Source: a virus
Taxonomy: Duplodnaviria; Heunggongvirae; Uroviricota; Caudoviricetes
DNA: 55,157 nt
Virus record (IMG/VR): IMGVR_UViG_2721755660_000006
Coordinates: 1 to 55,157 of that record
Direction: 5' to 3' (one strand)
Shown: piece by piece, positions 1,596 to 48,705 of the stretch
Layout of the letters: every line of letters begins with the position of its first letter
Numbering within the stretch: position 1 is the stretch's first letter
The notes under the pieces: model-generated
What the model was told of the DNA's origin: nothing
Seen by the model: only the letters and a program-made list of their open reading frames with translations
The model's database searches: none
Program-made: the position numbers and the translations under genes

Positions 1596-4500
1596 TTATT
1601 TTTCGCTTCCGGTCAACTGCCGGACAAGCGCTTCAAGTTTAGTGATCCGCTCATCCATGACGGCAATGTTAGCTCGTAAGCTGGCGTTTTCTTCCTCCAG
1701 TTCGGTGACGCGGTTATCTGTTTCGCGTGCCACCTGAACAAGTAAACCAGTCACAGCCGCATAGTCAACATTAAGATAGCGCGTTTCTTCGCGTAGCTCG
1801 TTGCCGTCAATGGTCGGACCTTGTAACGCTTCACCGTAATGAGTAAACGATCCCACAGCTTCCGGAAGCGCCTCCATGACCTCCTGAGCGATAACGCCAG
1901 CGTAAGGCAGGCCGTTTTCCTTAAGCGTGTAGGTGTACCCGTTCATTTTACGGATTGCTTCAGTAGCATCGCCTATAACCTGAATGTTGTCCTTCAGGTC
2001 GCGGTCTGAAGACTGGTTTACTGTTACGCAGTTTACAGCACCATTAACCTGAAGTTGGCATGAATCATCAGTGTTTTGCTGTGCGTAAAAAAACCATGAA
2101 AGCGACGCGTTTGTGTCTGGATCTTTTATCTTGTACTCAAGTACAGTCGGACGGCTTGCTGCACCCCACAAATAAAGCTCGCCATTTCTTGCCGCTGAAT
2201 TTGCGACGGCTAAACTTACTTTTCTTGTGTAAGTATCAGCGAAAAACTCCGTAGATTTAAATTGCTGGTATCCAGTCCACCTTTGCGAAGATGCGTTAAG
2301 AGTAGCAATTTGACACCAGCCCTTATCTACTCCGGCCTCAAAACTTCTGGCATAGAATTTTGAATTACGTCCGGCGAATTGAGTTGCGTGGCTACCGCTA
2401 AATCCAACATGAAAACCACCATAAGTTAGGCTATTTTCAGGTGTATTAATGTTACCAGCAATAGGCTTAAATTTGCTTACGTTATCTGATTGTTGTGCGC
2501 TCCAGTCCTGATCTGAATATGTCGCAACCCCGTTTCCAGGCTGTATAGTTCCGTTTGATTGGATAACCTGGTAAGAATCACCATATTTATTGCGGTATGT
2601 ATCAGTGCAATAAAACCCTGTTGCACTCGATGTAAAATCAAGTAGGTTATTACTAATGCCGTAAGTGTCTAAATCAATACCATCAGAGGAATTAGTGATA
2701 CCCCATTTATAAGTCGGACTATCTGCTGTGTTAGCTGGCTTCCAGTCTGCTGTAGGTATTGTTACAGTACATCCAACCGTAACAGCGATGCGAATGGGGA
2801 AGGCATCACCGCGAACATAGATCGCGTTATGCTGATACTGCCCTTTATCAGTACCGCGAACGCAAAGTATCGCGTTTTCATTGTTTGCGTAACAGAAATA
2901 ATGACCAAATGCAGCCGCCCCCATATCTGACCAGCCACCATCACGTAACCATAAATGAATTGCGTTACAGTTAGGCTCTTCACTGCCAGATATTGACTTA
3001 GTTCTCATTGCAATTTCAACAAGGAAATCGCCGTTATAGTGTGAAGGATGGCTGACAATTACAGGGTAATATTTACCAGCTTCAGCACCAGTAGGGGCGT
3101 TGTAATCAACCCAATGCGCAATACCTGCAAACGGGATTTGCATATTGGTTTTAGTTTGTTCAAGGTTTGTAGGTACTGCAATTGCATTGACTTTCAGGTT
3201 AGGTACTTCTATTTCATCCCTTGCATAGTTGTAGCTCATTGAATTGCTTGTTTTCGTCCCGTCATATCCGTCTTTCTGAATACGCCAGTTACCACCATCA
3301 AAGACAAGGCTATAGTAAGGTGTATTTGATGGCCGATCCGTTTCGTTGAATCTGATGGTAGGATGAGCGCTTGATATTTCTACGGGATAATTAAAATTAG
3401 CTGTTAATCTTACACGCCTACCTATAAAATCACCGCTATTTAAAGAAAAGTCGCCGTCTTCGCTTAATCCTGCGTATTGGTTTTTATCTCCATTCTGTAG
3501 GTGAATTGTGGCCCATGATTTACCATCGCCACGGAATTCTGAATAAAAACGCGCTCGCGCTCTTTGTGCGCCTGATGCATCATTAAGGACGCTTTGTAAA
3601 ATACCGCCTGCCGTGGTTGCGACATCTGACGACCTAACAAGGTTAAGGTTTGTAAATTGCGGGCTATCAGTAAAATCAAGAGACTGAAATTTCTTCCATG
3701 CGGTCCACTCCCAACCAGAAGAGGAAGACTGAATGATGTGCTGGCGCATATAAAATGTACCAGTCGTGGCATTGTAAGGGAAATAAAGCTGCGTGCATCC
3801 TGCGTTACCGTTCGCATTATTTCTAATAACAAGCAATGCTCCCGCACTTGATACAGGATAACCGCGCGCAGTCGTGGCATTTGCGTTTAACCCCTGGTAA
3901 TAAAAACCGGAATACTCGCCTGTAAGCGTATTAATATCTGTGGAACCTAGATCTGATTTTTTCTCATACATAGCCTCAAGGTTAGTGCGAGCTTGTCCTG
4001 AATTAAGCCCGCCTGTACCACCATGTGCTACTTTTAACGGAACAAAAGCGCCTGCGGAATCATCATACACACCCCAATTAATAGTATCCCCTGTTCCACC
4101 ATCCCACAGAACAAATTTTTGTTTTCCTCCTGCGGCCCACAAAGCAGTCTCACTGCTACCCTGAACTAAGCGACTAACCTCATCTTTCCTTGCGTGGCGC
4201 GTCCATTGTGGGCCTGTTGATTCGCTCCACTTATAAGTGTAAGCACTTCCGGTCATCTGCCCTATAAAAAGGCCAGAAAATGCCGGGACACTGCCTAAAG
4301 TCGGGCAAATAAAGCCAGACAAATAGCGCTCACCTGAAGCAATAGAAGGCCACCCGGCAGCCCCTTCCATGATGCGCAGAAAGCCAAGATAACCTGATGG
4401 GTTTCCTGAAATATCCGGGCAATCTCTGGGGTTTGAGGAAAGACCAATGCTACTCCCGACAATACCTTGCGCCTGATTGCGATAGTTTAGCGCATCGGCT

Positions 4501-12696: not shown

Positions 12697-12767
12697 GATG
12701 TGCGAAAATTACGTTATGGAAGTGATTATTATCATCATTGGATTGTTATGTATTCTGCTATCGACAC

Positions 12768-12790
12768 TATAAACCCCGCTTCGCGCGGGG
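12768..12790. terminator. Bidirectional terminator hairpin between island A and a minus-strand small gene
   Basis: CCCCGCTTCGCGCGGGG hairpin between convergent ORF ends. Confidence 0.55.
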
Positions 12791-23198: not shown

Positions 23199-24060
23199 CC
23201 TTATAGTTTTCTTGCGCCCGATCTAATATTCGTTTGTTTAATATGTTACCGTCTTCGTCAACCAATACGGTAATCGTGCTACATTTGCAGTTAATTGAAT
23301 TTGGTGATCTGCTCCACCATTCGCGCTGCTCATCTATGGTGTATGTTTTCCCGTGCCGCTGCGCGTGCGATAGCCTGGTAGTCGGTGACAATGCCGAAAT
23401 GTGCATTTGCATGGTGCGCAGATTAAGCTCTTCTGTCGCCGCTTCTGCCTCATCCATACGCGCTGTGCGTAACGCTGTGCATATTTCAGTTCGGGCAATA
23501 CGTTTGCACCTGTATAGCGGCAATTGCGTTTCCTGCTGCAATGTGCGCGCTATTTCCAGTGGATTTAAACCACGGGCCATCCCTTCGGTTAATCGCCGGG
23601 CCATATCCTTCTTGATCTGTGCTGTTAGCCCGCGCATTTCCTCAAATACACGGGTACGAACAAGGGCAAGGCGCGTGCGGTAAGTCGTACTTGATAGCAC
23701 GGCGGATACATCAGGATAAGCGCTTGAGTAAGTAACAGACTGGTTGGCAAGGTTGGCGTATTCCTGTGCCGTGCCGCGCTGATATGCCACCTTCACGTAT
23801 TCCTGCCAAAACCAAAAACTTTCCGGGTCGGTTAGCTCGAATATCTCATCAATCATGTCGCTGGCGTCCTCCAGCATGTCGTGCAATTCATCCATGTAAA
23901 TCTGGAAGGTGTATTTTTTATTAACAGCCAGGCTATATTGTATTCTGTCCAGTATGGCGATATATGGATCGGCTATTTTCTTCAGGCAGGATTTGAAACG
24001 CTTAATAGCTCCCGACCGTAACTTACCTGTCATGGTCGGGTCTTCGGTGTTAGATGGCAT
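23164..24060 (-). CDS. Head morphogenesis protein (Mu F / SPP1 gp7-like)
   Basis: About 300 aa directly after the portal gene; start uncertain, internal Met chosen. Confidence 0.6.
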   Translation of the reverse strand: MPSNTEDPTMTGKLRSGAIKRFKSCLKKIADPYIAILDRIQYSLAVNKKYTFQIYMDELHDMLEDASDMIDEIFELTDPESFWFWQEYVKVAYQRGTAQEYANLANQSVTYSSAYPDVSAVLSSTTYRTRLALVRTRVFEEMRGLTAQIKKDMARRLTEGMARGLNPLEIARTLQQETQLPLYRCKRIARTEICTALRTARMDEAEAATEELNLRTMQMHISALSPTTRLSHAQRHGKTYTIDEQREWWSRSPNSINCKCSTITVLVDEDGNILNKRILDRAQENYKVAHAKYGEDWE

Positions 24061-25444
24061 TATCGCGGCGGGAGGTATTCGCCTGATTATTTTCTTCACC
24101 TTCATCATCGTTTTCCTCGTCTTCCAGTTCTACTTCACTAGCTGGGCCATCGTATCCGGCAGCTTCGCGGATCTCGTCACCGCTAAATATTTCCTCACCA
24201 GTAGCAAGACAAGCCTGATTGATTTGCGCCATTTTGTGTGCCGCTTCCAGTAGTTCGGCTTTTGTCATGGCGTTAAGGTCATCCCATAAAACTGATACAT
24301 CGACTGGCATACTGATAAGGCGGAGATCTGCCATCTTGCGGAATAGTTCCTCAAGCTCGCCTCCAATTTCCTCGCGGCGGGTCATACAGCGATTATTGAA
24401 GTAGCGTAGGTCTTCAGTTGATGCGCGTTCGCCCTGCTGATTCCCAACCAGGATACGCGTCGGGATGTCGATACCAGCGGCGGCAGTTTGCAGGTTGACG
24501 TCATAGGTTGCAGATGGATCGGCTACGGCAGTTACCAGCGGGCTAACACTTGCCCCTTGTAATGCCATCATCACATCATTACCCCTATTCATTTCTGCTG
24601 CTGCCTCGTTGAATTTCTCGCGTAGCTCTGTAACGTCGCAATCGTATGTTGCAGCCAGGGAACGGAAATCAATCTCTTTATCGAACGAGATAGCCAGTTG
24701 ACGAGCGGCATTTTTCAGGAATGACTCACCGCTACCGCCTTCCACTTTCTCCAGCGAAACGAAAGCGTTATAGGACGGCTCAAGGAAAGCGATAGCATCA
24801 TCAGAATAATCACCAAATATAAAGATCCTGTCTGGATGAATCTTTCTTGCTATGGTTTTACTGTTGATCCGCTCCTTGTATTCCCACCATGTCGGAAGGC
24901 CATAGTTTTCTTTATCCTGGTTTTCTTCGAAGTCCTTCGGCGTAAGAGCGCCAGCCCACACAGGGGTGAATTTGGCAATGCCTACGCCTTTTGTTACTGG
25001 CTGATCCCACGGCTGGTTATCTCTGACATGAATTAACAGGCCCGCATAACGACCGATGAGGCGGCGGCGATCGCATTCAGCTATGACGCGCCAGAAACGA
25101 TTATCAAATTGCTTTTTAATTTCTCTTTCCCACGGCGTTTCCGTTTCTGCTTTCTCGTCTTCCGTACCTTCAATCAGCGTTGGCCTGGTGCGCCAGCACG
25201 TAGTAACGATCTTCTCAATAGCACCGTGAGCGATACCACCGCGACGATACAGCTTGTAAAGATCTTCATAGGTGATTTCTTCTTTGAATCCGTATTCACT
25301 CCACGCAGCGTCACGTTTTGCATCAATACCCATTGAGAATGGGTTAGCGGCTGCATAGCGGGCAAAGGCCGCCTGGCGTTGTGACAAGGCAGCATTAACC
25401 GCCAATTCTAAATTGGATGGCATAATGTTTACTCCTGAATACAT
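24050..25444 (-). CDS. Portal protein
   Basis: 464 aa with acidic C-terminal tail, immediately downstream of the large terminase. Confidence 0.75.
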   Translation of the reverse strand: MYSGVNIMPSNLELAVNAALSQRQAAFARYAAANPFSMGIDAKRDAAWSEYGFKEEITYEDLYKLYRRGGIAHGAIEKIVTTCWRTRPTLIEGTEDEKAETETPWEREIKKQFDNRFWRVIAECDRRRLIGRYAGLLIHVRDNQPWDQPVTKGVGIAKFTPVWAGALTPKDFEENQDKENYGLPTWWEYKERINSKTIARKIHPDRIFIFGDYSDDAIAFLEPSYNAFVSLEKVEGGSGESFLKNAARQLAISFDKEIDFRSLAATYDCDVTELREKFNEAAAEMNRGNDVMMALQGASVSPLVTAVADPSATYDVNLQTAAAGIDIPTRILVGNQQGERASTEDLRYFNNRCMTRREEIGGELEELFRKMADLRLISMPVDVSVLWDDLNAMTKAELLEAAHKMAQINQACLATGEEIFSGDEIREAAGYDGPASEVELEDEENDDEGEENNQANTSRRDNAI

Positions 25445-25501: not shown

Positions 25502-26986
25502 TTAAAATCCGCGCAGGCGCTTAGGTAACATGAGGCCTATTGCCTGTGGCTGGCTTAATTCAGTGATACCCCACACCATTGCGTCGAGGCGGTCCGGGGA
25601 TTTTTTAGCGGTAGCTGGCACGTATTCCATCATTTGATTTTCCAGCGTGTACAGGCTGCCTGTGTGGGCCACCCTTCCTTGTGCATACAGTGCCGATATT
25701 GGCTCGGCTCGGGCGAATTTACCCTTGCTTGCGTGCACCTTAACAATGCGGCCTTTGAATCCGGCATTACGTAGCGTGGCCTCCGCCATTTCGCCGCCCT
25801 GGTTGGTTTCGATAACTATCGCGTCAGCTTCATGGATGTTGTAGGCGTTCATTGATGCTTGCGCCCAGTCGTTAGGAGACATGCGGCCTGAGTAGTCACC
25901 GTCTACAGAATACTGAGCGTGCTTGCCGCCACCATAAGCGGAACATGCCACGATCCCGGTTTCGTCAGACTCATCAGATGATGTTGTTGCCGGGTCGATG
26001 GCTATCACCGTGCGGATCCTGTCCTGCGTTATCTGCATCCGGTGAGCGGCGGTTATCATCGCTTCAGTCCATAATGCGCCTTCTTCGTCGAATTTACGCG
26101 GGCGCTGCATGTACTGCGCCTCGAATGACCTGCGGTGTGCTTTCAGTCCGGCTTCATGGCTGTCATTGTGCTTTTTAGGCCATAGCCAGCCGTCCGGCAG
26201 GTTGTGAGCAATAGGAATAGCGAATTCGTTTTCCGGGTACAGATCCCAATAGTCGATGCTATTGTCGATCTTCACTGGCAGGTTAAGGTGATACCATTTC
26301 TCACCACTGCCACCGCGTAACAGGTAGCCGGACAAATCATCGTAGTGGATACGCTGCATAATGACGATAACAGGCGTCTCCTGTACGGCAAGACGTGAAG
26401 CGAGCGTGTCGTTGTAGTTGTTCTTTACCTTATCCCGCATCACATCAGAGTAAGCGTCAGCGGGCTTTAATGGGTCATCAATAATTAACGCGCCGTTGAA
26501 GCCTGGCTCCATGTAACCAGCACGAAAACCCGTGATCTGGCCGTGTGACGATGCGGCATATATCCCGCCGCCCTGTTCCGTCCACCACATTGATTTGGAG
26601 TTGGCATCATTGCGGATCCTCATAGGCCACATCGCTTGATACTCTGGCGAGCAAATCATATTTCTGACTGTCGATGAATTGAGTAATGCGAGGTTGTCGG
26701 AATAGGAGACATGAAGAAAACGCGTGCGGGGATTTATTGCGAGGGACCGCGCCATCATATTGATAGTTGCGATCATGGTCTTGCCGTACCCTGGGGGGAT
26801 GTTAATGATGAGGCGGGTAATCTCACCATTAATAACGCGTTGCAGTGCATCGCGGATAGCTATGTGATGGCCTGAGACAAACATCTTCGTACCGTTTGCT
26901 TGCTTGTAGAAATAGCGGTTGAAGAACAGGCCATCGTTTTCACATTTTGACTGAATAACCCTTTCTTTGATGGATAACATAATCAC
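25502..26986 (-). CDS. Terminase large subunit
   Basis: 494 aa; Walker A-like PPGYGKT, Walker B-like LIIDDP, C-terminal nuclease-like region. Confidence 0.9.
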   Translation of the reverse strand: MIMLSIKERVIQSKCENDGLFFNRYFYKQANGTKMFVSGHHIAIRDALQRVINGEITRLIINIPPGYGKTMIATINMMARSLAINPRTRFLHVSYSDNLALLNSSTVRNMICSPEYQAMWPMRIRNDANSKSMWWTEQGGGIYAASSHGQITGFRAGYMEPGFNGALIIDDPLKPADAYSDVMRDKVKNNYNDTLASRLAVQETPVIVIMQRIHYDDLSGYLLRGGSGEKWYHLNLPVKIDNSIDYWDLYPENEFAIPIAHNLPDGWLWPKKHNDSHEAGLKAHRRSFEAQYMQRPRKFDEEGALWTEAMITAAHRMQITQDRIRTVIAIDPATTSSDESDETGIVACSAYGGGKHAQYSVDGDYSGRMSPNDWAQASMNAYNIHEADAIVIETNQGGEMAEATLRNAGFKGRIVKVHASKGKFARAEPISALYAQGRVAHTGSLYTLENQMMEYVPATAKKSPDRLDAMVWGITELSQPQAIGLMLPKRLRGF

Positions 26987-27468
26987 ACCTCGTCTTCTAC
27001 TTCCTGGACGATACGGGCGATCTCTTCTTTCGTGACTTCAACCTGGACTGGCGCTTCTTCCTTGTTGCCAACGATCTCCTGTGTGACGCGTTCACCGTAT
27101 TTGCGCGGCTGAAGTTTTGCCAGTAGCCACTTGCGCGTTTCAATCATTAGTTGGTGGCGGCGTAGTTGGTCTTTATCAACGTTCTTAGCATCATCAGCTA
27201 TATCGAGGATCTCATCAGCTAATACCTCGAATCCTATTTCCTTCGCGCGCATGTACATGTCCGAGAATTCCGGCACGTCTCTAAACCATTTCAGGATTGT
27301 GGAACGGGTAGGCATACCAGGCATTTTCGAAATTTTGTTAACGCTCTGACCGTCCGCTACCAGTTCACAGATTTCTAACGCCTTTTCTTCGGTATAACCA
27401 TGCGGACGGCCCACCTTTTTAGCGGCTGGCTTTTTATCGTCAGCCTTTGCCTTTTTAGTGCGGGCCAT
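26983..27468 (-). CDS. Terminase small subunit
   Basis: 161 aa; GRPHGYTEEKALEICELVADGQSVNKISKMPGMPTRSTILKW matches the HTH-containing small terminase signature. Confidence 0.85.
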   Translation of the reverse strand: MARTKKAKADDKKPAAKKVGRPHGYTEEKALEICELVADGQSVNKISKMPGMPTRSTILKWFRDVPEFSDMYMRAKEIGFEVLADEILDIADDAKNVDKDQLRRHQLMIETRKWLLAKLQPRKYGERVTQEIVGNKEEAPVQVEVTKEEIARIVQEVEDEV

Positions 27469-27478
27469 ATTTCACCTC

Positions 27479-27562
27479 TCAATATTTATTGATGATATAT
27501 ACGCAAGCAACAAAACTTGCACAGTATGTTAATACTTCCAACCAGTCGAATAGCTCTTTCAT
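27479..27562 (-). CDS. Mini transmembrane peptide 11 of tandem array (27 aa)
   Basis: MKELFDWLEVLTYCASFVACVYIINKY; its ATG overlaps the stop of peptide 10 (ATGA). Confidence 0.5.
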   Translation of the reverse strand: MKELFDWLEVLTYCASFVACVYIINKY

Positions 27563-27702
27563 TGTTTACCCTTGAATCTCTGTTTTGATTCTCTGTAAAT
27601 AAGCCAGGTAATCATTACGATCACGTATACGCATAACATTAACGCAATAATAAGCACGCCAGAGCAAACTAAGAACATTAACAGATCTATAAACTCAAAC
27701 AT
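27559..27702 (-). CDS. Mini transmembrane peptide 10 of tandem array (47 aa)
   Basis: MFEFIDLLMFLVCSGVLIIALMLCVYVIVMITWLIYRESKQRFKGKQ; AAGAGG Shine-Dalgarno. Confidence 0.55.
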   Translation of the reverse strand: MFEFIDLLMFLVCSGVLIIALMLCVYVIVMITWLIYRESKQRFKGKQ

Positions 27703-27712
27703 GATTGCCTCT

Positions 27713-27784
27713 TTACATAATCGTAAGCGCCCAGGTAATAAGGACGATAGCTAAAACCATGTATATAAAATCTGACTCTCTCAT
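27713..27784 (-). CDS. Mini transmembrane peptide 9 (23 aa)
   Basis: MRESDFIYMVLAIVLITWALTIM; AAGGTGG Shine-Dalgarno. Confidence 0.5.
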   Translation of the reverse strand: MRESDFIYMVLAIVLITWALTIM

Positions 27785-27798
27785 ATTGTCCACCTTGT

Positions 27799-27867
27799 TT
27801 ACGTGAAGAAAACAATAACGACTAACAACGCGCTTATAGCCATGATTAAGAAATCACTGTTAGACAT
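27799..27867 (-). CDS. Mini transmembrane peptide 8 (22 aa)
   Basis: MSNSDFLIMAISALLVVIVFFT; start overlaps the stop of peptide 7; AGGGGTGA Shine-Dalgarno. Confidence 0.5.
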   Translation of the reverse strand: MSNSDFLIMAISALLVVIVFFT

Positions 27868-27934
27868 TGATAATCACCCCTACGATAATTAACGCGGCGA
27901 TACATACGAATAATACGGCTTCGATAACATCCAT
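27860..27934 (-). CDS. Mini transmembrane peptide 7 (24 aa)
   Basis: MDVIEAVLFVCIAALIIVGVIINV; AGGTGAG Shine-Dalgarno. Confidence 0.5.
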   Translation of the reverse strand: MDVIEAVLFVCIAALIIVGVIINV

Positions 27935-27942
27935 TCGCTCAC

Positions 27943-28011
27943 CTATTGAGTCAGTGCGGTCATGGTAAGAACAATCGCAACGATCAGGAAAAGGAAATCA
28001 AGCCATTTCAT
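27943..28011 (-). CDS. Mini transmembrane peptide 6 (22 aa)
   Basis: MKWLDFLFLIVAIVLTMTALTQ; ATG overlaps the stop of peptide 5 (ATGA). Confidence 0.5.
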   Translation of the reverse strand: MKWLDFLFLIVAIVLTMTALTQ

Positions 28012-28088
28012 TTTTTAATCTCCCGGTATACGTCCACGGCAATGACTGTAATAACAGCCACCAGCAATAGCATTTCATATGCGTTCAT
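28008..28088 (-). CDS. Mini transmembrane peptide 5 (26 aa)
   Basis: MNAYEMLLLVAVITVIAVDVYREIKK; AGGTGA Shine-Dalgarno; the track 61-aa ORF 28008..28193 is an upstream in-frame extension. Confidence 0.5.
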   Translation of the reverse strand: MNAYEMLLLVAVITVIAVDVYREIKK

Positions 28089-28096
28089 GCTTTCAC

Positions 28097-28171
28097 CTAT
28101 ACAACATTCTTCCACCAGAAATAGATAATGACAGCGACCAACGACCACCAGATGAGATCGTAAATATTCAT
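28097..28171 (-). CDS. Mini transmembrane peptide 4 (24 aa)
   Basis: MNIYDLIWWSLVAVIIYFWWKNVV; GAAGG Shine-Dalgarno. Confidence 0.5.
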   Translation of the reverse strand: MNIYDLIWWSLVAVIIYFWWKNVV

Positions 28172-28182
28172 GGTGAATACCT

Positions 28183-28269
28183 TCAGCTTTCAATGAATAT
28201 CATGATCGCCAGCCATACAGCGACGCAGGCAGAAAGGATAATGAGCGGGTCAATCATATTGTCACCCAT
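28183..28269 (-). CDS. Mini transmembrane peptide 3 (28 aa, or 24 aa from the internal Met)
   Basis: MGDNMIDPLIILSACVAVWLAIMIFIES; ATG directly follows the stop of peptide 2. Confidence 0.45.
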   Translation of the reverse strand: MGDNMIDPLIILSACVAVWLAIMIFIES

Positions 28270-28365
28270 CTAATATTTGCTCTTTACGGTTATCAGCACG
28301 GCGATAACAAAGCCAACCAGAAATATAGATATGCCTATTAATCCGGCGATGGTGCTGTCGTCCAT
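28270..28365 (-). CDS. Mini transmembrane peptide 2 (31 aa)
   Basis: MDDSTIAGLIGISIFLVGFVIAVLITVKSKY; TGA-TT-ATG junction with peptide 1. Confidence 0.5.
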   Translation of the reverse strand: MDDSTIAGLIGISIFLVGFVIAVLITVKSKY

Positions 28366-28367
28366 AA

Positions 28368-28451
28368 TCAACCTACGGGCCATTTTGGGGAAAACATTAC
28401 AATCGCAGTTCCAGCCGCGCCGATAAATACACCTAGCAGGAAAGTAAACAT
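28368..28451 (-). CDS. Mini transmembrane peptide 1 (27 aa)
   Basis: MFTFLLGVFIGAAGTAIVMFSPKWPVG; GGGGTGA Shine-Dalgarno; ATG two nt after the stop of the HExxH protein gene. Confidence 0.5.
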   Translation of the reverse strand: MFTFLLGVFIGAAGTAIVMFSPKWPVG

Positions 28452-28453
28452 AA

Positions 28454-28996
28454 TCACCCCCGTTTAAAGCTCATAACGCGCGGTACAAGCGCTTCTTTTG
28501 CTTTCGGCTTACGTTTGCCTTTCTTCGCGGTTTTTTCTTCTTCCTTCGGCTGTTCTGCCTGTTCTAATGCCTGCTCAACGACTTCAGCCGCCTGCATTGC
28601 TGCCACCTGTGATTCATTTGATTCTGCCAGGATGGGGAAGAAAGCATCAAAGATACGGCCCACCATGTAAGCGTAAGTCTCATTCGCCGGGTGAGTTTGA
28701 TCAGTTGTCGCTACGACGCCTACATCACTTAAAACGTGAAATGTCGTGTGAGCGCATTCATGCACCAGCGTTCCTAACTCATTGTCGAATACTGCGATCA
28801 CGTAGAAGTTACCGCCTTTCTCACCAGTGCAAGTAAGCGTCAATCCTCCTGCCAGTTCGAAATCAGGTTCTATTGGAATTCCTGCCTTCTCGCAAAATTC
28901 ATAAAACATCTCGCGGGTCGGGCAAAAGAAAACGGTTGTATGCTCAAAGAGCGGGATCTTGAATTGAGGCAACTTAATGCCTTTAGCCTTAGCCAT
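28454..28996 (-). CDS. Hypothetical protein with HExxH motif and lysine-rich C-terminal tail (possible zinc metallopeptidase-like)
   Basis: 180 aa; LVHECAHTTFHV contains HExxH; C-terminal KEEEKTAKKGKRKPKAKE; sits between the spanins and the peptide array. Confidence 0.6.
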   Translation of the reverse strand: MAKAKGIKLPQFKIPLFEHTTVFFCPTREMFYEFCEKAGIPIEPDFELAGGLTLTCTGEKGGNFYVIAVFDNELGTLVHECAHTTFHVLSDVGVVATTDQTHPANETYAYMVGRIFDAFFPILAESNESQVAAMQAAEVVEQALEQAEQPKEEEKTAKKGKRKPKAKEALVPRVMSFKRG

Positions 28997-29274: not shown

Positions 29275-29757
29275 TTATTCTTTGCGTATGCACTGCGTCT
29301 TGATGTAGTCCTGCAATCCGGTGATCTTCGCGTCTTTCTCTTTTAGTTGTTCTCTGAGGGATAGATAAGCCGATTCAGCGTCGGGAGTGAGTCTACAGGC
29401 GGCTCCATCAATGCGGCTGGCGGTTCCGGTGGCGTCTGGCACTCGCACGGGTATTGCGTTGACGTGCAACCTGATAGCACCGCTATCAATACCAGCACGC
29501 AGATCAGCAATGTCAGATCTGATAGCTTTAATCTCATCGTGATACCTCTTATCAAGTTTTGATAGTTCGGCGTTTCGCTCCTTCATCTGCTGAATAGTGT
29601 TACTTGCTGTTTTTAGTGCGCCCTGCGTAGTAGTTAGCTCGCTTTGCATTGTGTTTATCACTGACTGGCAGTGACTAAGCGCGGCAACAAGCCCAACAAC
29701 GACACAAACGATAGCGGCGATGATTAACGCCTTTATCTTGTCCACGTTTCCCCCCAT
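29275..29757 (-). CDS. i-spanin (Rz-like)
   Basis: 160 aa; N-terminal TM helix, coiled-coil body, C-terminal LQDYIKTQC resembling lambda Rz; embedded Rz1-like ORF. Confidence 0.8.
29343..29537 (-). CDS. o-spanin (Rz1-like lipoprotein) embedded in Rz in another frame
   Basis: [24 protein letters not shown] lipobox followed by proline-rich region ([12 protein letters not shown]), as in lambda Rz1. Confidence 0.75.
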   Translation of the reverse strand: MRLKLSDLTLLICVLVLIAVLSGCTSTQYPCECQTPPEPPAALMEPPVDSLPTLNRLIYPSENN

Positions 29758-30224
29758 TCACAAACGGCATATTCAACATCACGGCGGTTGATTAAACCTT
29801 GCCATTTTTGACCACCAGCATATATCCAGCGTTTAAGCTGGGCGCACGCTTCGGATTTCTTGCCGTCATTGAGTAGTTTTAACAGTGTGGATGTTTTGAA
29901 GTTGGTAGCGCCTACGTTATAGGCGAATGAATAAAGCGCAGCGCGGGTGAAATCTGATATTTCGACTTTAATATATGGGTCAATCGCTTTTGCGGTTTTG
30001 TGGAGATCCTTGTTTAACAAAGCATCGCATTCTGATTGCGTGTAAGTCTTACCAAGCATGATGTCTTTTCCGGTGTGACCATAGCAAACGGTCCATACGC
30101 CGATAACATCACGATAGGGATCGTACTCCACGCCCTCTAATGGTTTAACCATCACAGCCGCAATAGCGATCGCCCCACCAGCCGCCGCAGCAATAATCTT
30201 ATTCTTCAGCGATTGGCTAATCAT
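29733..30224 (-). CDS. SAR endolysin (phage lysozyme, P21 R-like)
   Basis: N-terminal signal-arrest-release helix ([15 protein letters not shown]) and lysozyme catalytic region [23 protein letters not shown] closely resembling P21 R; start set to MISQSL. Confidence 0.9.
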
Positions 30225-30225
30225 G

Positions 30226-30426
30226 TTACTTATTCCCCATTCGCGCGTCGTGTTCCTCTTGCGCTCGCTTGTTCTCCTGTGATTTGAAGTAATAATTAAC
30301 GGCAAATGTGCCTATGGTTGATAAGATACCCACAAAGACGGCAATATCATTGATGGTTATCGCGCCGAAAAAAGCAGTTACGGCCCCAGTCACATACGCG
30401 CACGCCTCCCGTATTCTGTCGAACAT
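30226..30426 (-). CDS. Class II holin (pinholin-like)
   Basis: 66 aa with two TM segments and charged C-terminus, directly upstream of and overlapping the SAR endolysin start. Confidence 0.8.
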
Positions 30427-30449: not shown

Positions 30450-30470
30450 AACCCGGCGCGGTGCCGGGTA
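30450..30470 (-). terminator. Rho-independent terminator immediately upstream of the holin (candidate tR-prime-like late antitermination target)
   Basis: Minus strand reads CCCGGCACCGCGCCGGG then TTTTTGCTTTGTT, followed by GGAGG Shine-Dalgarno and the holin ATG. Confidence 0.6.
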
Positions 30471-30729: not shown

Positions 30730-30912
30730 TTTTACGCTCCTTAATGGCTCGCCTGATTTGCTCTGCCGTAGCGTCGAAGAAAGCAATAAAAACAGTCACA
30801 GGCCAAAAAGGAATCTCAAGTCCACCAGGTTCTGCACCGCTAAACTTAATAAAACATGACATCAGGATCGCGCCAGCGATATAAAGCAAAAACAATCACA
30901 GCTATAAGGCAT

Positions 30913-31044
30913 TCAATCATCTTCACCCCCAAGATCGTGATAAATATCGTTAGGGTCTTCACCATGTTCCTCGCAAAAACGCTCAAATAGCGCCCAATTT
31001 TCAGAAAGAAACATGATTAATAAATTTTTATACCACTCTTCCAT
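30913..31044 (-). CDS. Hypothetical small acidic protein (43 aa)
   Basis: ATG directly follows the stop of the upstream gene; MEEWYKNLLIMFLSENWALFERFCEEHGEDPNDIYHDLGGEDD. Confidence 0.35.
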   Translation of the reverse strand: MEEWYKNLLIMFLSENWALFERFCEEHGEDPNDIYHDLGGEDD

Positions 31045-41616: not shown

Positions 41617-41714
41617 AAATCACCTCATATGGTATTCAATAAACCACCTGATAAACAGGCATAAGGCAATAAAACCCCAGCAGCAGCACATATAAAACAA
41701 TGTATCGTCCATAA

Positions 41715-43179: not shown

Positions 43180-43442
43180 ACGCCGAACATCCCATTCAGT
43201 CCGGCGAACAATTTCCGCCAGTGGTTTTCAACATAAGCCCGGAACGGCTTAACGCGAACATTGCGGGCCTTCAGTTCAATCTTGTCGAAGAAACGCGGCT
43301 CTATAATTGTTCCGTCCAGATATTTAACTAGGATCGGGCGCTCAAGATCGTTATATGTCTTGTTCAGCACAACCAGACCAGGGTCTTTACGGTATTCCGG
43401 GAGCACAACAAGATCACCCGTTTTGATATTCATGAATGGCAT
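43170..43442 (-). CDS. Hypothetical protein
   Basis: 90 aa from the ATG overlapping the upstream mini-gene stop (TGATG). Confidence 0.45.
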   Translation of the reverse strand: MPFMNIKTGDLVVLPEYRKDPGLVVLNKTYNDLERPILVKYLDGTIIEPRFFDKIELKARNVRVKPFRAYVENHWRKLFAGLNGMFGVWL

Positions 43443-43558
43443 CACATCACCCCGCCGATATAGCTAATAATTGCCGCAGTCGCGCCAGCTATTACCACCA
43501 TGAAGACGAAAGCGACCACACAGAAAACAGCCTTGACAGTATTTTTGTCGACTCGCAT
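43442..43558 (-). CDS. Mini membrane peptide (38 aa)
   Basis: MRVDKNTVKAVFCVVAFVFMVVIAGATAAIISYIGGVM; GAGGT Shine-Dalgarno; coupled to flanking genes. Confidence 0.45.
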   Translation of the reverse strand: MRVDKNTVKAVFCVVAFVFMVVIAGATAAIISYIGGVM

Positions 43559-43565
43559 ATAAACC

Positions 43566-43673
43566 TCACATGTCAGTAATCAGCTTAACAATCGCCACAG
43601 TGATATAGAGTGACGCACTAAGGTAAACAGCCGCCACAGCAACGGCGGCGGATAACATTGCAATCTTTTTCAT
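43566..43673 (-). CDS. Mini membrane peptide (35 aa)
   Basis: MKKIAMLSAAVAVAAVYLSASLYITVAIVKLITDM; ATG overlaps the upstream stop (ATGA). Confidence 0.45.
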   Translation of the reverse strand: MKKIAMLSAAVAVAAVYLSASLYITVAIVKLITDM

Positions 43674-48603: not shown

Positions 48604-48705
48604 ATGAACGGTAAACGCATGTTCGCCCTGGCTTTCGCGATCGCGATGGCTATCGCTGTTAACGTCGCCTTGTTCGGCGGCTTATATCTACTAGTTAATC
48701 CATAA
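48604..48705 (+). CDS. Mini hydrophobic peptide (33 aa)
   Basis: MNGKRMFALAFAIAMAIAVNVALFGGLYLLVNP; GAGAGGA Shine-Dalgarno. Confidence 0.4.
   Translation: MNGKRMFALAFAIAMAIAVNVALFGGLYLLVNP

Follow-up and report, generated by a model that had tools for sequence, protein, structure and literature searches.

A lineage-specific, ordered chain of translationally coupled micro-genes for predicted single-helix membrane peptides in phages of the mEpimmI group

Introduction

AcrZ, MgtS, MgrB, KdpF, CydX and PmrR are small membrane-protein regulators of bacteria, and the principle of viral E5 and of the "traptamers" is related. Peptides of the AcrZ/MgtS/MgrB type and E5 act on a larger protein, to whose membrane part they bind. 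They resemble the peptides of the array described here in two respects: (i) they have at most 50 amino acids and consist essentially of one transmembrane (TM) helix; (ii) the sequence-specific constraint on the helices of the array recalls peptides of the AcrZ and E5 types. However, AcrZ-type genes are solitary and have known partners, whereas the array is ordered, polymorphic, translationally coupled and located in a phage late operon.

The ldrA-C, ibsA-E and hok genes of E. coli form tandem type I toxin loci with very small hydrophobic ORFs (18-50 aa). As in the array, several tiny hydrophobic ORFs are found within one genome region. The toxin genes each have their own promoter, structured leader and antisense RNA, and lack translational coupling. 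The array differs from them by its distinct ortholog families, which are not near-identical repeats and gave no family match.

The Pf3 coat protein is a short single-span peptide devoid of signal peptide; its N-terminal tail is acidic, its C-terminus basic or neutral. The peptides of the array similarly have an acidic head and a neutral or basic end, which implies an N-out/C-in orientation. The Pf3 coat is the virion protein of a filamentous phage, and the likeness is limited to the predicted topology and insertion route.

Three phage systems bear on lysis. ORF52 of phage BSPM4 (64 aa, one TM helix) is a holin-binding protein that delays lysis (PMC11657625), gp25 of Mu, the "releasin", is needed for the SAR endolysin to be released (PMC9239132), and P1 employs LydA to LydD jointly, i.e., multiple holin-like proteins (PMC9025707). 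Like the array products, all of them are small phage membrane proteins whose genes lie apart from those of the holin and endolysin; ORF52 and gp25 have a single TM helix and act on holin or SAR-endolysin function. Each of these modulators is encoded by a single gene of 60-100+ codons and has a sizeable soluble part, whereas the array has 3-13 genes, mostly of 22-31 codons, with almost no extramembrane residues, and its peptides have no sequence or profile similarity to them.

Finally, P22-like phages (phage L and ST64T: Orf129, then Dec, then gene 3) have a slot at the same position, i.e., between the HExxH/Orf129 homolog and the small terminase gene, which also carries non-essential cargo. 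There, the slot is empty or holds one ordinary gene (Dec, 134 aa), and never a chain of TM micro-genes.

Genomic context

The window, i.e., the whole stretch of 55,157 nucleotides that was analysed, is a temperate E. coli phage (prophage) of the mEpimmI (mEp021) group. This group is non-lambdoid, and the lambdoid frame adopted in the preliminary description was wrong. The gene order on one strand is holin, SAR endolysin, spanin, HExxH protein, array, TerS, TerL and portal, the array being placed in the rightward lysis-packaging gene string. The neighbours of the array are the following.

29275..30426, minus strand: lysis cassette, upstream of the array in the same gene string
30226-30426, minus strand: holin, 66 aa, two transmembrane domains (Pfam Phage_holin_2_3 / P21 holin S)
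29733-30224, minus strand: SAR endolysin, R21/RrrD-type (Pfam Phage_lysozyme)
29275-29757, minus strand: spanin, Rz-type (Pfam Phage_lysis)
28454..28996, minus strand: HExxH protein, 180 aa, homolog of mEp021 gp49 (phrog_1365), adjoining the array upstream
26983..27468, minus strand: small terminase subunit (TerS), Sf6 type (Pfam PF20901 Sf6_terminase, E 1.2e-37; phrog_1482)

The endolysin matches PDB entries 3hde and 4zpu (E about 1e-63), the Gly/Ala-rich N-terminal membrane segment included. Between it and the array lie the spanin gene, a non-coding stretch of about 280 nt and the HExxH gene. TerS has a dN/dS of 0.079. A strong terminator is localized directly upstream of the holin. Consensus scans gave 4 promoter-like sites in 4 kb, vs. 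6.8 +/- 2.6 in shuffles, and no convincing promoter belonging to the array. The location within the late lysis-packaging string, without such a promoter in these scans, speaks against superinfection exclusion by peptides expressed from the prophage, one of the roles initially proposed. One antisense promoter-like match (10 of 12) was seen at 27861-27889.

The HExxH protein is possibly a zincin-like or "PolyVal" metallopeptidase and ends in a Lys-rich disordered tail. The peptides were at first thought to be possible substrates or partners of this protein, i.e., substrates, inhibitors or membrane anchors. The first ORF of the array (B) begins 2 nt past the HExxH stop codon (TGA-TT-ATG) and is translationally coupled to it, and the HExxH motif is invariant across the family. 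On the other side, no membrane segment was predicted in the HExxH protein, and the peptides leave hardly any extramembrane residues within reach of a soluble protease. Moreover, HExxH homologs with 35-44% identity, in P22-like and other phages, adjoin Dec or TerS directly, the array being absent. A partnership with the HExxH protein is therefore very improbable. Since distant phages join HExxH directly to the terminase gene, the array is an insertion particular to this lineage rather than an obligate partner of HExxH; it lies between two genes which, in other phages, form part of the packaging module.

Layout of the array

Positions 27479-28451 of the minus strand contain a chain of 11 genuine genes of 22-47 codons, nearly all unannotated, just ahead of the packaging genes. 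The 11 back-to-back ORFs of the preliminary description were all recovered at their coordinates and with these lengths. In the lines below, the number of loci refers to the family of the same letter in 48 further loci (see next section).

28368..28451, minus strand: mini-gene B, 27 aa, MFTFLLGVFIGAAGTAIVMFSPKWPVG; 32/48 loci, dN/dS 0.20
28270..28365, minus strand: mini-gene D, 31 aa, MDDSTIAGLIGISIFLVGFVIAVLITVKSKY; 44/48 loci, dN/dS 0.19
28183..28257, minus strand: mini-gene G, 24 aa, MIDPLIILSACVAVWLAIMIFIES; 44/48 loci, dN/dS 0.29
28097..28171, minus strand: mini-gene I, 24 aa, MNIYDLIWWSLVAVIIYFWWKNVV; 28/48 loci, dN/dS 0.29
28008..28088, minus strand: mini-gene M, 26 aa, MNAYEMLLLVAVITVIAVDVYREIKK, stop overlapping the start of O (ATGA); 46/48 loci, dN/dS 0.22
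27943..28011, minus strand: mini-gene O, 22 aa, MKWLDFLFLIVAIVLTMTALTQ; 44/48 loci, dN/dS 0.11
27860..27934, minus strand: mini-gene P, 24 aa, MDVIEAVLFVCIAALIIVGVIINV, 8-nt overlap with the start of Q (ATGTCTAA); 35/48 loci, dN/dS 0.33
27799..27867, minus strand: mini-gene Q, 22 aa, MSNSDFLIMAISALLVVIVFFT; 31/48 loci, dN/dS 0.26
27713..27784, minus strand: mini-gene R, 23 aa, MRESDFIYMVLAIVLITWALTIM; 16/48 loci, dN/dS 0.25
27559..27702, minus strand: mini-gene S, 47 aa, MFEFIDLLMFLVCSGVLIIALMLCVYVIVMITWLIYRESKQRFKGKQ, stop overlapping the start of T (ATGA); dN/dS 0.23
27479..27562, minus strand: mini-gene T, 27 aa, MKELFDWLEVLTYCASFVACVYIINKY; 48/48 loci, dN/dS 0.21

ATG is the start codon of the 11 ORFs. 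In each of them, 4 nt or more match the anti-SD complement at a distance of 4-15 nt 5' of the start: GGGGGTGA, AGGT, GGGTGA, AAGGT, AGGTGA, GGGAG, AGGTGAG, GGGGTGAT, AAGGTGG, AAGAGG and AAGGGT. The spacing from stop to next start is 2, 12, 11, 8, -4, 8, -8, 14, 10 and -4 nt, and the last ORF (T) stops 10 nt short of the TerS ATG. Mini-gene D has a further in-frame ATG upstream, at 28383, which is not kept in relatives. Of the scanned stretch, 88% is occupied by the ORFs; for the interval proper the figure is 92%. As the interval is covered to that extent by selected ORFs and followed by a TerS of the Sf6 type, it is improbable that a cos or pac site makes up most of its content.

The mean of the 15-residue Kyte-Doolittle window reaches at least 1.89 in each of the 11 products. 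Comparable ORFs numbered 0.23 +/- 0.46 (maximum 3) in 1000 dinucleotide-preserving shuffles, vs. 11 in the real sequence. None was found on the antisense strand of the array, and the 6 found in the remainder of the 55-kb window are all isolated. In DNA of lambda, P22-like and other phages (247 kb), their density is 0.57 per 10 kb, with at most 1 per kb. A chance origin of the chain is excluded. Spacing, SD matches, hydrophobic helix and in-frame purifying selection (see below) agree with the original view of tightly coupled mini-genes for single-helix membrane peptides.

The array in related phages

The same slot was found in 48 further loci (related phages and prophages), with 3-13 mini-ORFs each. 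The length of the interval follows the number of mini-ORFs (r = 0.91, about 80 bp apiece). It had been envisaged that relatives might carry one intact larger gene at this place; a chain of mini-ORFs was found in 48 of the 48 loci.

The ORFs sort into about 20 ortholog families. The order of the cassettes is never violated, no family occurs twice in any locus, and 37 architectures are found among the 48 loci. T is the sole cassette present everywhere. T, M, D, G and O constitute a near-universal core, an indication that part of the array has a housekeeping role; one locus holds just three cassettes (B, D, T), and mEp021 bears G-M-N-O-T only. Q is restricted to loci bearing P (31/35 with P, 0/13 without P; Fisher p 1e-8), and R and N never co-occur in one locus. 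Peptide G is unchanged in phage L052, though the adjoining HExxH protein there is just 61% identical. The AAGGGTAAACA-ATG type of junction is common to the loci irrespective of the preceding cassette. In some loci cassettes have lost their start codon in place, as Q in 4 other loci; individual members of the array are thus dispensable.

Paralogy exceeds the composition-shuffled null within two groups, F/I/K/M and N/O/R/Q, with z of 4.5-11.4 for most pairs. M is a paralog of F (z 11.4), I of F, K and M, R of N (z 10.2), and O of N and R; the links of Q are weaker (Q-R z 3.6, I-Q z 3.4). Overall, z > 4 was reached by 13 of the 190 family pairs. The earlier idea of one diverged paralogous family is thus supported only in part, i.e., within these two groups; the other families are not linkable.

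No DNA repeat of cassette length was detected in the array by Tandem Repeats Finder and a repeat finder. Only short matches of 12-22 nt were obtained, thus the array is not a recent DNA repeat. A sensitive blastn search of the array against 50,697 phage records found only the 7 records of the mEpimmI group. The array would grow by tandem duplication followed by divergence, and whole cassettes would drop out in register at the similar SD-start junctions; such processes would explain why each phage bears its own subset of cassettes. In summary, the array is a lineage-specific, ordered set of independently initiated, translationally coupled micro-genes.

Membrane helix and topology

The peptides share the same plan: an acidic head of 3-6 residues, one hydrophobic helix, then a neutral or basic tail. 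The uncharged core has 13-30 residues. A net negative charge was found on the head in 17 of 20 families, in agreement with the polar, acidic head first described ahead of the helix. In 18 families out of 20 the tail carries a positive charge or none, basic tails being confined to S, D and M. Peptide S is one long helix whose C-terminal tail is basic; its AlphaFold2 model is a single helix (residues 2-46, pLDDT 90.6).

As heads are acidic and tails neutral or basic, an N-out/C-in topology is predicted. The peptides are too short for co-translational targeting and would thus be released, then inserted post-translationally into the inner membrane. This insertion would be Pf3-coat-like, by a YidC-type or spontaneous route.

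Selection on the peptides

The in-frame dN/dS of the array families is 0.22 when pooled and 0.10-0.33 per family; it is 0.99 and 1.32 in the shifted frames. Variable columns at codon positions 1, 2 and 3 amount to 132, 88 and 247, respectively. By this substitution pattern, the ORFs are judged to be genuine protein-coding genes.

These values bear on whether the peptides matter at all. The ORFs could merely keep ribosomes on the late mRNA (coupling, Rho protection) before terminase, or be chance ORFs of a T-rich spacer. The coding strand is indeed T-rich (34% T), a composition that promotes hydrophobic codons; coupling is tight all along the chain from HExxH to TerS, and some cassettes are dead in place. 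Against this, dN/dS is near 1 only out of frame, variation falls mostly on third codon positions and shuffles of the same composition do not yield 11 ORFs. No spacer is required, since relatives lacking the array join HExxH straight to TerS. Such an explanation is scarcely tenable: it is largely refuted by the shuffles, dN/dS and the omega of the helix cores.

The latter is 0.16. Among the possible nonsynonymous changes in the helix cores, 74% leave a membrane-compatible residue, and the omega of that class is 0.21. A helix core constrained by hydrophobicity only is expected to have an omega of ~0.74. These values point to sequence-specific purifying selection, beyond hydrophobicity. The variable positions have no significant periodicity of ~100 degrees along the helices (combined p = 0.19) and thus give no indication of a single conserved binding face.

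The same values weigh on a role as generic membrane perturbers of the type I toxin or holin kind, in which the hydrophobic load would depolarise or permeabilise the membrane and copy number would be the dose. The size and composition of the peptides resemble those of toxins of the Ibs, Ldr, TisB and ShoB type, copy number ranges from 3 to 13, and in SAR-endolysin systems depolarisation alone sets off lysis. However, omega is 0.16-0.21 instead of about 0.74. Ortholog identity and order are kept in all loci and no family is present twice, thus simple dosage is disfavoured. Neighbouring ORFs are so close (-8 to +14 nt) that separate promoters or antisense genes find no place between them, and neither the former nor antisense RNAs are enriched. 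No significant toxin or holin profile match was obtained. Generic perturbation is thus improbable, and the likeness to type I toxins suggested beforehand is not retained, in view of this packing, the lack of enrichment in promoter-like sites and the lack of a toxin family match.

Database and literature searches

Scans of 19 family representatives against Pfam, PHROG, NCBIfam and PADLOC gave nothing significant (PADLOC models: 0/19). Rfam gave for the array only a sub-threshold match to the S15 leader (E 0.68), which was rejected. Ten peptides of the window were looked up among 15 billion predicted proteins, and the nine with less than 30 aa are absent. For the exact sequence of D, public collections list only "hypothetical protein". 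The homologs of S are confined to close relatives: 22 clusters at 70% identity or more in a word-indexed search of 5.8 billion clusters, and 2 true clusters plus 1 spurious repetitive membrane protein in a full HMMER profile search of 1.84 billion representatives.

RefSeq has no annotation in the 1-kb interval of the array. The paper describing the mEpimmI/mEp021 group, virion proteomics included, does not mention the ORFs. A full-text search for four family peptide sequences found none, and no description of such an array was found in the literature on small phage membrane proteins. Most members have under 30 codons, which is why the array was missed by standard annotation.

Possible function

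The peptides may be TM-helix ligands expressed late, which would act in trans on other membrane proteins during late lytic growth. The process tentatively favoured as their target, though with somewhat less than an even chance, is the membrane clock of lysis: they would most plausibly tune the pinholin/SAR-endolysin clock. Lysis in this phage is of the phage-21 type (small two-TMD holin plus SAR endolysin), in which timing is governed by helix-helix contacts in the bilayer and by membrane energisation. Systems of this kind are known to be retuned by single-TM phage proteins from outside the lysis cassette. The context is consistent with a link to lysis, i.e., the array is on the same strand as the lysis genes, a strong terminator precedes the holin and promoter sites are not enriched.

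Several observations count against the lysis clock: (i) the array is physically separated from the lysis cassette; (ii) known lysis modulators comprise one or two genes, vs. 3-13 in the array; (iii) phages with identical holins carry 8 to 13 different cassettes, and the locus reduced to three cassettes (B, D, T) has a 98%-identical holin. No co-variation of array content with holin, endolysin or spanin alleles was found. Comparison of the peptides with the holin TMDs, the spanin TM and the SAR segment gave no similarity beyond composition (best z 3.2 and 2.9, over 8-11 residues). It must be added that the peptides were also considered as holins or antiholins and rejected as such. Single peptides gave the best profile matches (PHROG holin, E 0.076 and 0.18; Pfam Holin_SPP1, E 0.017), the genes are not beside the endolysin and only S, D and M have basic tails.

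The main rival to the lysis clock is inhibition of host membrane proteins or defence effectors. Each peptide would bind the TM part of a different host inner-membrane protein or defence/abortive-infection effector, or would block competing phages, and gain and loss of cassettes would track the hosts and competitors met by each phage. The 37 architectures built from about 20 families are typical of accessory islands at module junctions, the same slot is filled in P22-like phages by the unrelated accessory gene Dec, the helices are under sequence-specific constraint and array content is independent of lysis-gene alleles. Expression alongside terminase and portal would be well timed against defences that late proteins trigger. 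Conversely, no match to PADLOC or other families was obtained, and the array has no convincing promoter of its own within the late string; known genes for anti-defence or exclusion, in contrast, are for the most part early or prophage-expressed. Selection is purifying (dN/dS 0.1-0.33), with no sign of diversifying selection, and the core (T, M, D, G, O) is almost universal. On balance, such a set of inhibitors is rather unlikely, although a possibility to be taken into account beside the lysis clock.

Significance

The array might represent a new class of phage accessory locus, i.e., a combinatorial library of minimal TM-helix "binders", evolving by cassettes, each tuned to a different host, defence or lysis membrane domain. 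This generalization is doubtful for the moment. If it is true, similar arrays of micro-genes may hide in unannotated gaps of other phages. Most of the array genes fall below the 30-codon floor of gene callers; nevertheless they are conserved, selected and more strictly organised than many ordinary phage genes.

With its roughly 20 families (22-47 residues), the array constitutes a compact natural system in which to study how minimal TM helices come to have specific functions, as well as the birth, duplication and loss of micro-genes. If the peptides retune the pinholin/SAR-endolysin clock or block membrane-acting host proteins, no smaller phage effectors of that sort would be known, and they would be templates for designed TM-helix inhibitors. 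The "non-coding" gaps of prophages can be packed with real genes.

Layout of the array and chance controls

The tandem array of the preliminary description is real, and that description was essentially right. Eleven consecutive ATG ORFs run on the minus strand from 28451 to 27479 between the HExxH gene and the small terminase (TerS) gene, with sizes, in order, of 27, 31, 24, 24, 26, 22, 24, 22, 23, 47 and 27 codons. The first ORF starts 2 nt after the HExxH stop, the stop-to-start distances along the array are 2, 12, 11, 8, −4, 8, −8, 14, 10 and −4 nt, and the last ORF ends 10 nt before the ATG of TerS. Upstream of each of the 11 ORFs, at 4-15 nt, at least 4 nt match the anti-Shine-Dalgarno complement. 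In every product, a 15-residue window averages 1.89 or more on the Kyte-Doolittle scale.

The observation is solid with respect to chance. When ORFs of up to 60 aa are scanned with ATG, Shine-Dalgarno (SD) and hydrophobic window as criteria, the 11 qualifying ORFs occupy 88% of the scanned stretch on the sense strand, and the same scan of the antisense strand of the array gives none. Dinucleotide-preserving shuffles (n = 1000) give 0.23 ± 0.46 qualifying ORFs (maximum 3). Control phage DNA (247 kb, i.e., lambda plus 34 P22-like and other loci) has 0.57 per 10 kb and never more than 1 per kb, vs. 11 per kb in the array. Neither a DNA-level tandem repeat nor an Rfam family accounting for the region was found. 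The remainder of the 55-kb window holds just 6 isolated candidates. These lie outside larger ORFs and encode 24-39 aa, each with ATG, SD and hydrophobic helix:

12698-12772, plus strand, isolated small ORF
30846-30965, minus strand, isolated small ORF
41620-41712, minus strand, isolated small ORF
43442-43558, minus strand, isolated small ORF of the early region, first of an adjacent pair
43566-43673, minus strand, second of the pair
48604-48705, plus strand, isolated small ORF

Cassette order and polymorphism in related loci

The HExxH-TerS interval was compared in 49 loci having both flanking genes, i.e., 46 IMG/VR loci obtained with TerS as bait plus phage and genome records. One of them (L003) is the genome record of the window itself, and comparisons use the 48 others. 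TerS is 85-100% and HExxH 79-100% identical across loci. The interval measures 318-1,154 bp and always contains 3-13 transmembrane (TM) mini-ORFs, which cover 73-95% of it; its length grows in proportion to the ORF count, by about 80 bp for each (r = 0.91).

The 189 distinct peptides were clustered at 55% identity into 20 groups, named A to T (H being a single-locus variant of I), and each group has a fixed relative position. The window reads B-D-G-I-M-O-P-Q-R-S-T, whereas mEp021 has only G-M-N-O-T and MagusPhagus has 12 cassettes. The 48 loci display 37 different architectures, with no violation of order and no family present twice within one locus. Cassette T is found in 48/48 loci, M in 46/48, and D, G and O in 44/48 each, the others being sporadic. 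The 12-14 nt ahead of a given start codon are alike regardless of the preceding cassette (e.g., AAGGGTAAACA-ATG before T). Such shared SD-start junctions would provide micro-homology by which whole cassettes could be lost or gained in register.

In several related loci the start codon is destroyed while the cassette DNA is retained: Q in L009, L012, L025 and L030 (reading TSDSDFLIM...), and I in L018 (reading INIYDLIWW...). Individual cassettes decay in place and are dispensable. The paralogous cassettes N and R never occur together (0/48 loci, Fisher p = 0.002), and Q is exclusive to P-bearing loci (31/35 with P, 0/13 without P, p = 1e-8). These patterns could reflect functional redundancy and partnership, or simply a common ancestry among loci.

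It must be added that one more ORF lies between T and TerS in five related phages (loci L011, L016, L028, L030 and L049). Its product of about 48 aa is soluble and acidic, so the slot also takes non-membrane cargo:

about 3335-3500 (locus positions), about 165 nt between T and TerS, extra soluble ORF, e.g., MVSNEELKMADEIRKALDAAENNETVYFSEREVEKMMDEFKLKFEKDN

Selection on the mini-genes

dN/dS was calculated (Nei-Gojobori) for all families represented by two or more alleles, as pairwise estimates without phylogenetic correction. In frame, the values per family are 0.10-0.33 (pooled, 0.22); the same alignments give 0.99 and 1.32 in the +1 and +2 frames. Variable columns number 132, 88 and 247 at codon positions 1, 2 and 3, respectively. 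The flanking essential genes, at similar synonymous divergence, have values of 0.079 (TerS) and 0.058 (HExxH). In L052, a more distant relative, HExxH is only 61% identical to that of the window, yet peptides G and T are identical.

The helix core has an omega of 0.16. About 74% of all possible nonsynonymous changes retain a membrane-compatible residue, and omega is 0.21 for that class alone, thus selection acts on the particular sequence and not on mere greasiness. Two readings were contradicted by test: (i) that the products are generic depolarising or toxin-like peptides; (ii) that the array is a mere translational relay. The type-I-toxin role proposed in the preliminary description is disfavoured. 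The array ORFs are real, selected and tightly coupled genes for single-helix peptides, and they form an ordered, polymorphic cassette array within the lysis-packaging gene string.

Properties and paralogy of the peptides

The composition is dominated by Ile, Leu, Val, Ala, Met and Phe. The first acidic residue is at position 2, 3 or 5 in 165/189 peptides. The N-terminal head carries a net negative charge in 17/20 families; for the C-terminal tail, 11 families have a positive, 7 a neutral and 2 a negative charge. By the positive-inside rule, these charges predict an N-out/C-in topology, i.e., the arrangement of Pf3 coat, a protein inserted with the help of YidC. Since peptides of 22-31 residues would still be within the ribosomal tunnel at termination, their insertion is likely to be post-translational. 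The AlphaFold2 model of S (47 residues) is one uninterrupted helix (pLDDT 90.6).

Two sets of families are linked above a composition-shuffled null: F/I/K/M (e.g., MNAYDLIW, MNIYDLIW, MNAYEMLL) and N/O/R/Q (MREADFF, MKWLDFF, MRESDFIY, MSDGDFLI). Most of the linked pairs reach z of 4.5-11, the Q pairs 3.4-3.6, and I and K have a common C-terminus. With the same null, the similarity of most other family pairs is indistinguishable from chance.

Lysis genes and the HExxH neighbour

The order on the same strand is terminator, holin, endolysin, Rz spanin, about 280 nt without ORFs, HExxH, array, TerS (Sf6 type), TerL and portal:

30451-30469, minus strand, strong intrinsic terminator, just before the holin gene
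29733-30426, minus strand, phage-21-type lysis genes: 66-aa two-TMD holin (HP1/P21 type) and R21/RrrD-like SAR endolysin
28454-28996, minus strand, HExxH protein (180 aa)
24050-25423, minus strand, portal-position gene

The terminator directly upstream of the holin suggests antitermination-dependent late expression. Promoter-like sites are not enriched (4 vs. 6.8 ± 2.6), so the array would most simply be part of the late transcript. A sigma-70-like match (TAGACA-17-GATAAT, 10/12) is present at 27861-27889 on the plus strand, antisense to the P/Q junction and pointing into cassette P. The conservation of its −10 hexamer may be a simple by-product of coding, since the opposite strand carries conserved codons (ATT ATC) and the SD of Q there.

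The endolysin is closely homologous to the solved phage-21-type lysozymes 3hde/3hdf and to RrrD 4zpu (E about 1e-63; 6e-63 for PDB 3hde). The match takes in the Gly/Ala-rich N-terminal membrane segment, which points to lysis of the pinholin/SAR-endolysin kind. In L052, an HNH endonuclease gene (2752-3273) lies between the endolysin and spanin genes, and the gene after the portal (8491 onwards) has matches to Phage_Mu_F and to an intein splicing domain. The portal-position gene of the window (24050-25423) bears the RefSeq name «anti-CBASS protein Acb1 family protein». It is annotated as portal in MagusPhagus, and its L052 homolog matches Pfam Phage_portal_3; the RefSeq name is probably a misleading automatic label.

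The HExxH protein belongs to phrog_1365, its HExxH motif is invariant and its model has weak zincin-like structural matches. Homologs are Orf129 of phages L and ST64T (43% identity) and proteins of 30-odd other viral contigs (35-44%). They all occupy the same position, as in the P22-like Salmonella phages:

2501-2890 of L050, HExxH/Orf129 homolog
163-552 of L051, HExxH/Orf129 homolog

In these other phages the gene is followed directly by Dec or terminase genes and never, in L, ST64T and the 30-odd contigs, by TM mini-ORFs. The array is thus an mEpimmI-specific insertion between two genes that are neighbours elsewhere, and the HExxH protein is a conserved packaging-module neighbour, always just upstream of packaging genes. 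The suggestion that the peptides are partners of the HExxH protein is disfavoured by these homologs without mini-ORFs, and their being its substrates was contradicted by test.

Distribution and annotation

The array region matches the chromosome of E. coli 09-00049 (NZ_CP015228.1) at 100% identity and phage MagusPhagus at 95%; it also matches mEp010, mEp013, mEp021, mEp044, mEp515 and mEp554 piecewise, at 85-93%. A match exists in 35/5,426 complete E. coli genomes. By sensitive blastn against 50,697 phage genomes, the array is found in the seven mEpimmI-group records only. The mEpimmI phages are a Nus-dependent, non-lambdoid group (PMC11893012), and the paper describing them does not mention the interval. 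RefSeq has no annotation between the HExxH and terminase genes, the same interval is empty in the mEp021 record, and that of MagusPhagus contains some «hypothetical proteins».

Pfam, PHROG, NCBIfam and PADLOC profiles gave no match to the array peptides. Homologs of S among 5.8 billion clusters are close relatives only, and a profile search of 1.84 billion representatives gave only two representative clusters. An exact look-up of 10 window peptides (all but B) in a 15-billion-protein collection retrieved only those of 31 and 47 aa, both labelled «hypothetical protein». Full-text literature searches found no description of a comparable micro-gene array. Small phage membrane proteins as such are already known; to our knowledge, no description exists so far of micro-genes lined up in a fixed order, as many as 13 per array and from about 20 families, nearly all of them too small to pass annotation thresholds.

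Proposed action

The peptides would insert post-translationally, N-out/C-in, and their action would come late in lytic growth, when their helices would contact those of other membrane proteins in a sequence-specific manner. The target process that we prefer is the lysis clock, for three reasons: (i) the peptides would be made together with the pinholin and the SAR endolysin; (ii) how these two behave hinges on contacts between TM helices and on the energisation of the membrane; (iii) there are precedents of single-TM phage proteins, encoded away from the lysis cassette, that bind holins or control SAR-endolysin release, i.e., BSPM4 ORF52 (PMC11657625), Mu gp25 (PMC9239132) and P1 LydB-D (PMC9025707). 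Against the lysis clock, array content is uncoupled from the holin and endolysin alleles, the peptides do not resemble holin TMDs, the gene number is far above that of any known lysis-control system, and the array lies beyond the HExxH gene, towards the packaging genes. The main alternative is that the array is accessory and its peptides inhibit host membrane proteins, defence effectors acting at the membrane, or competing phages; this would fit the polymorphism of the array better than a lysis clock but its late position worse. Whatever its function, the array is a small, clean and directly testable system.
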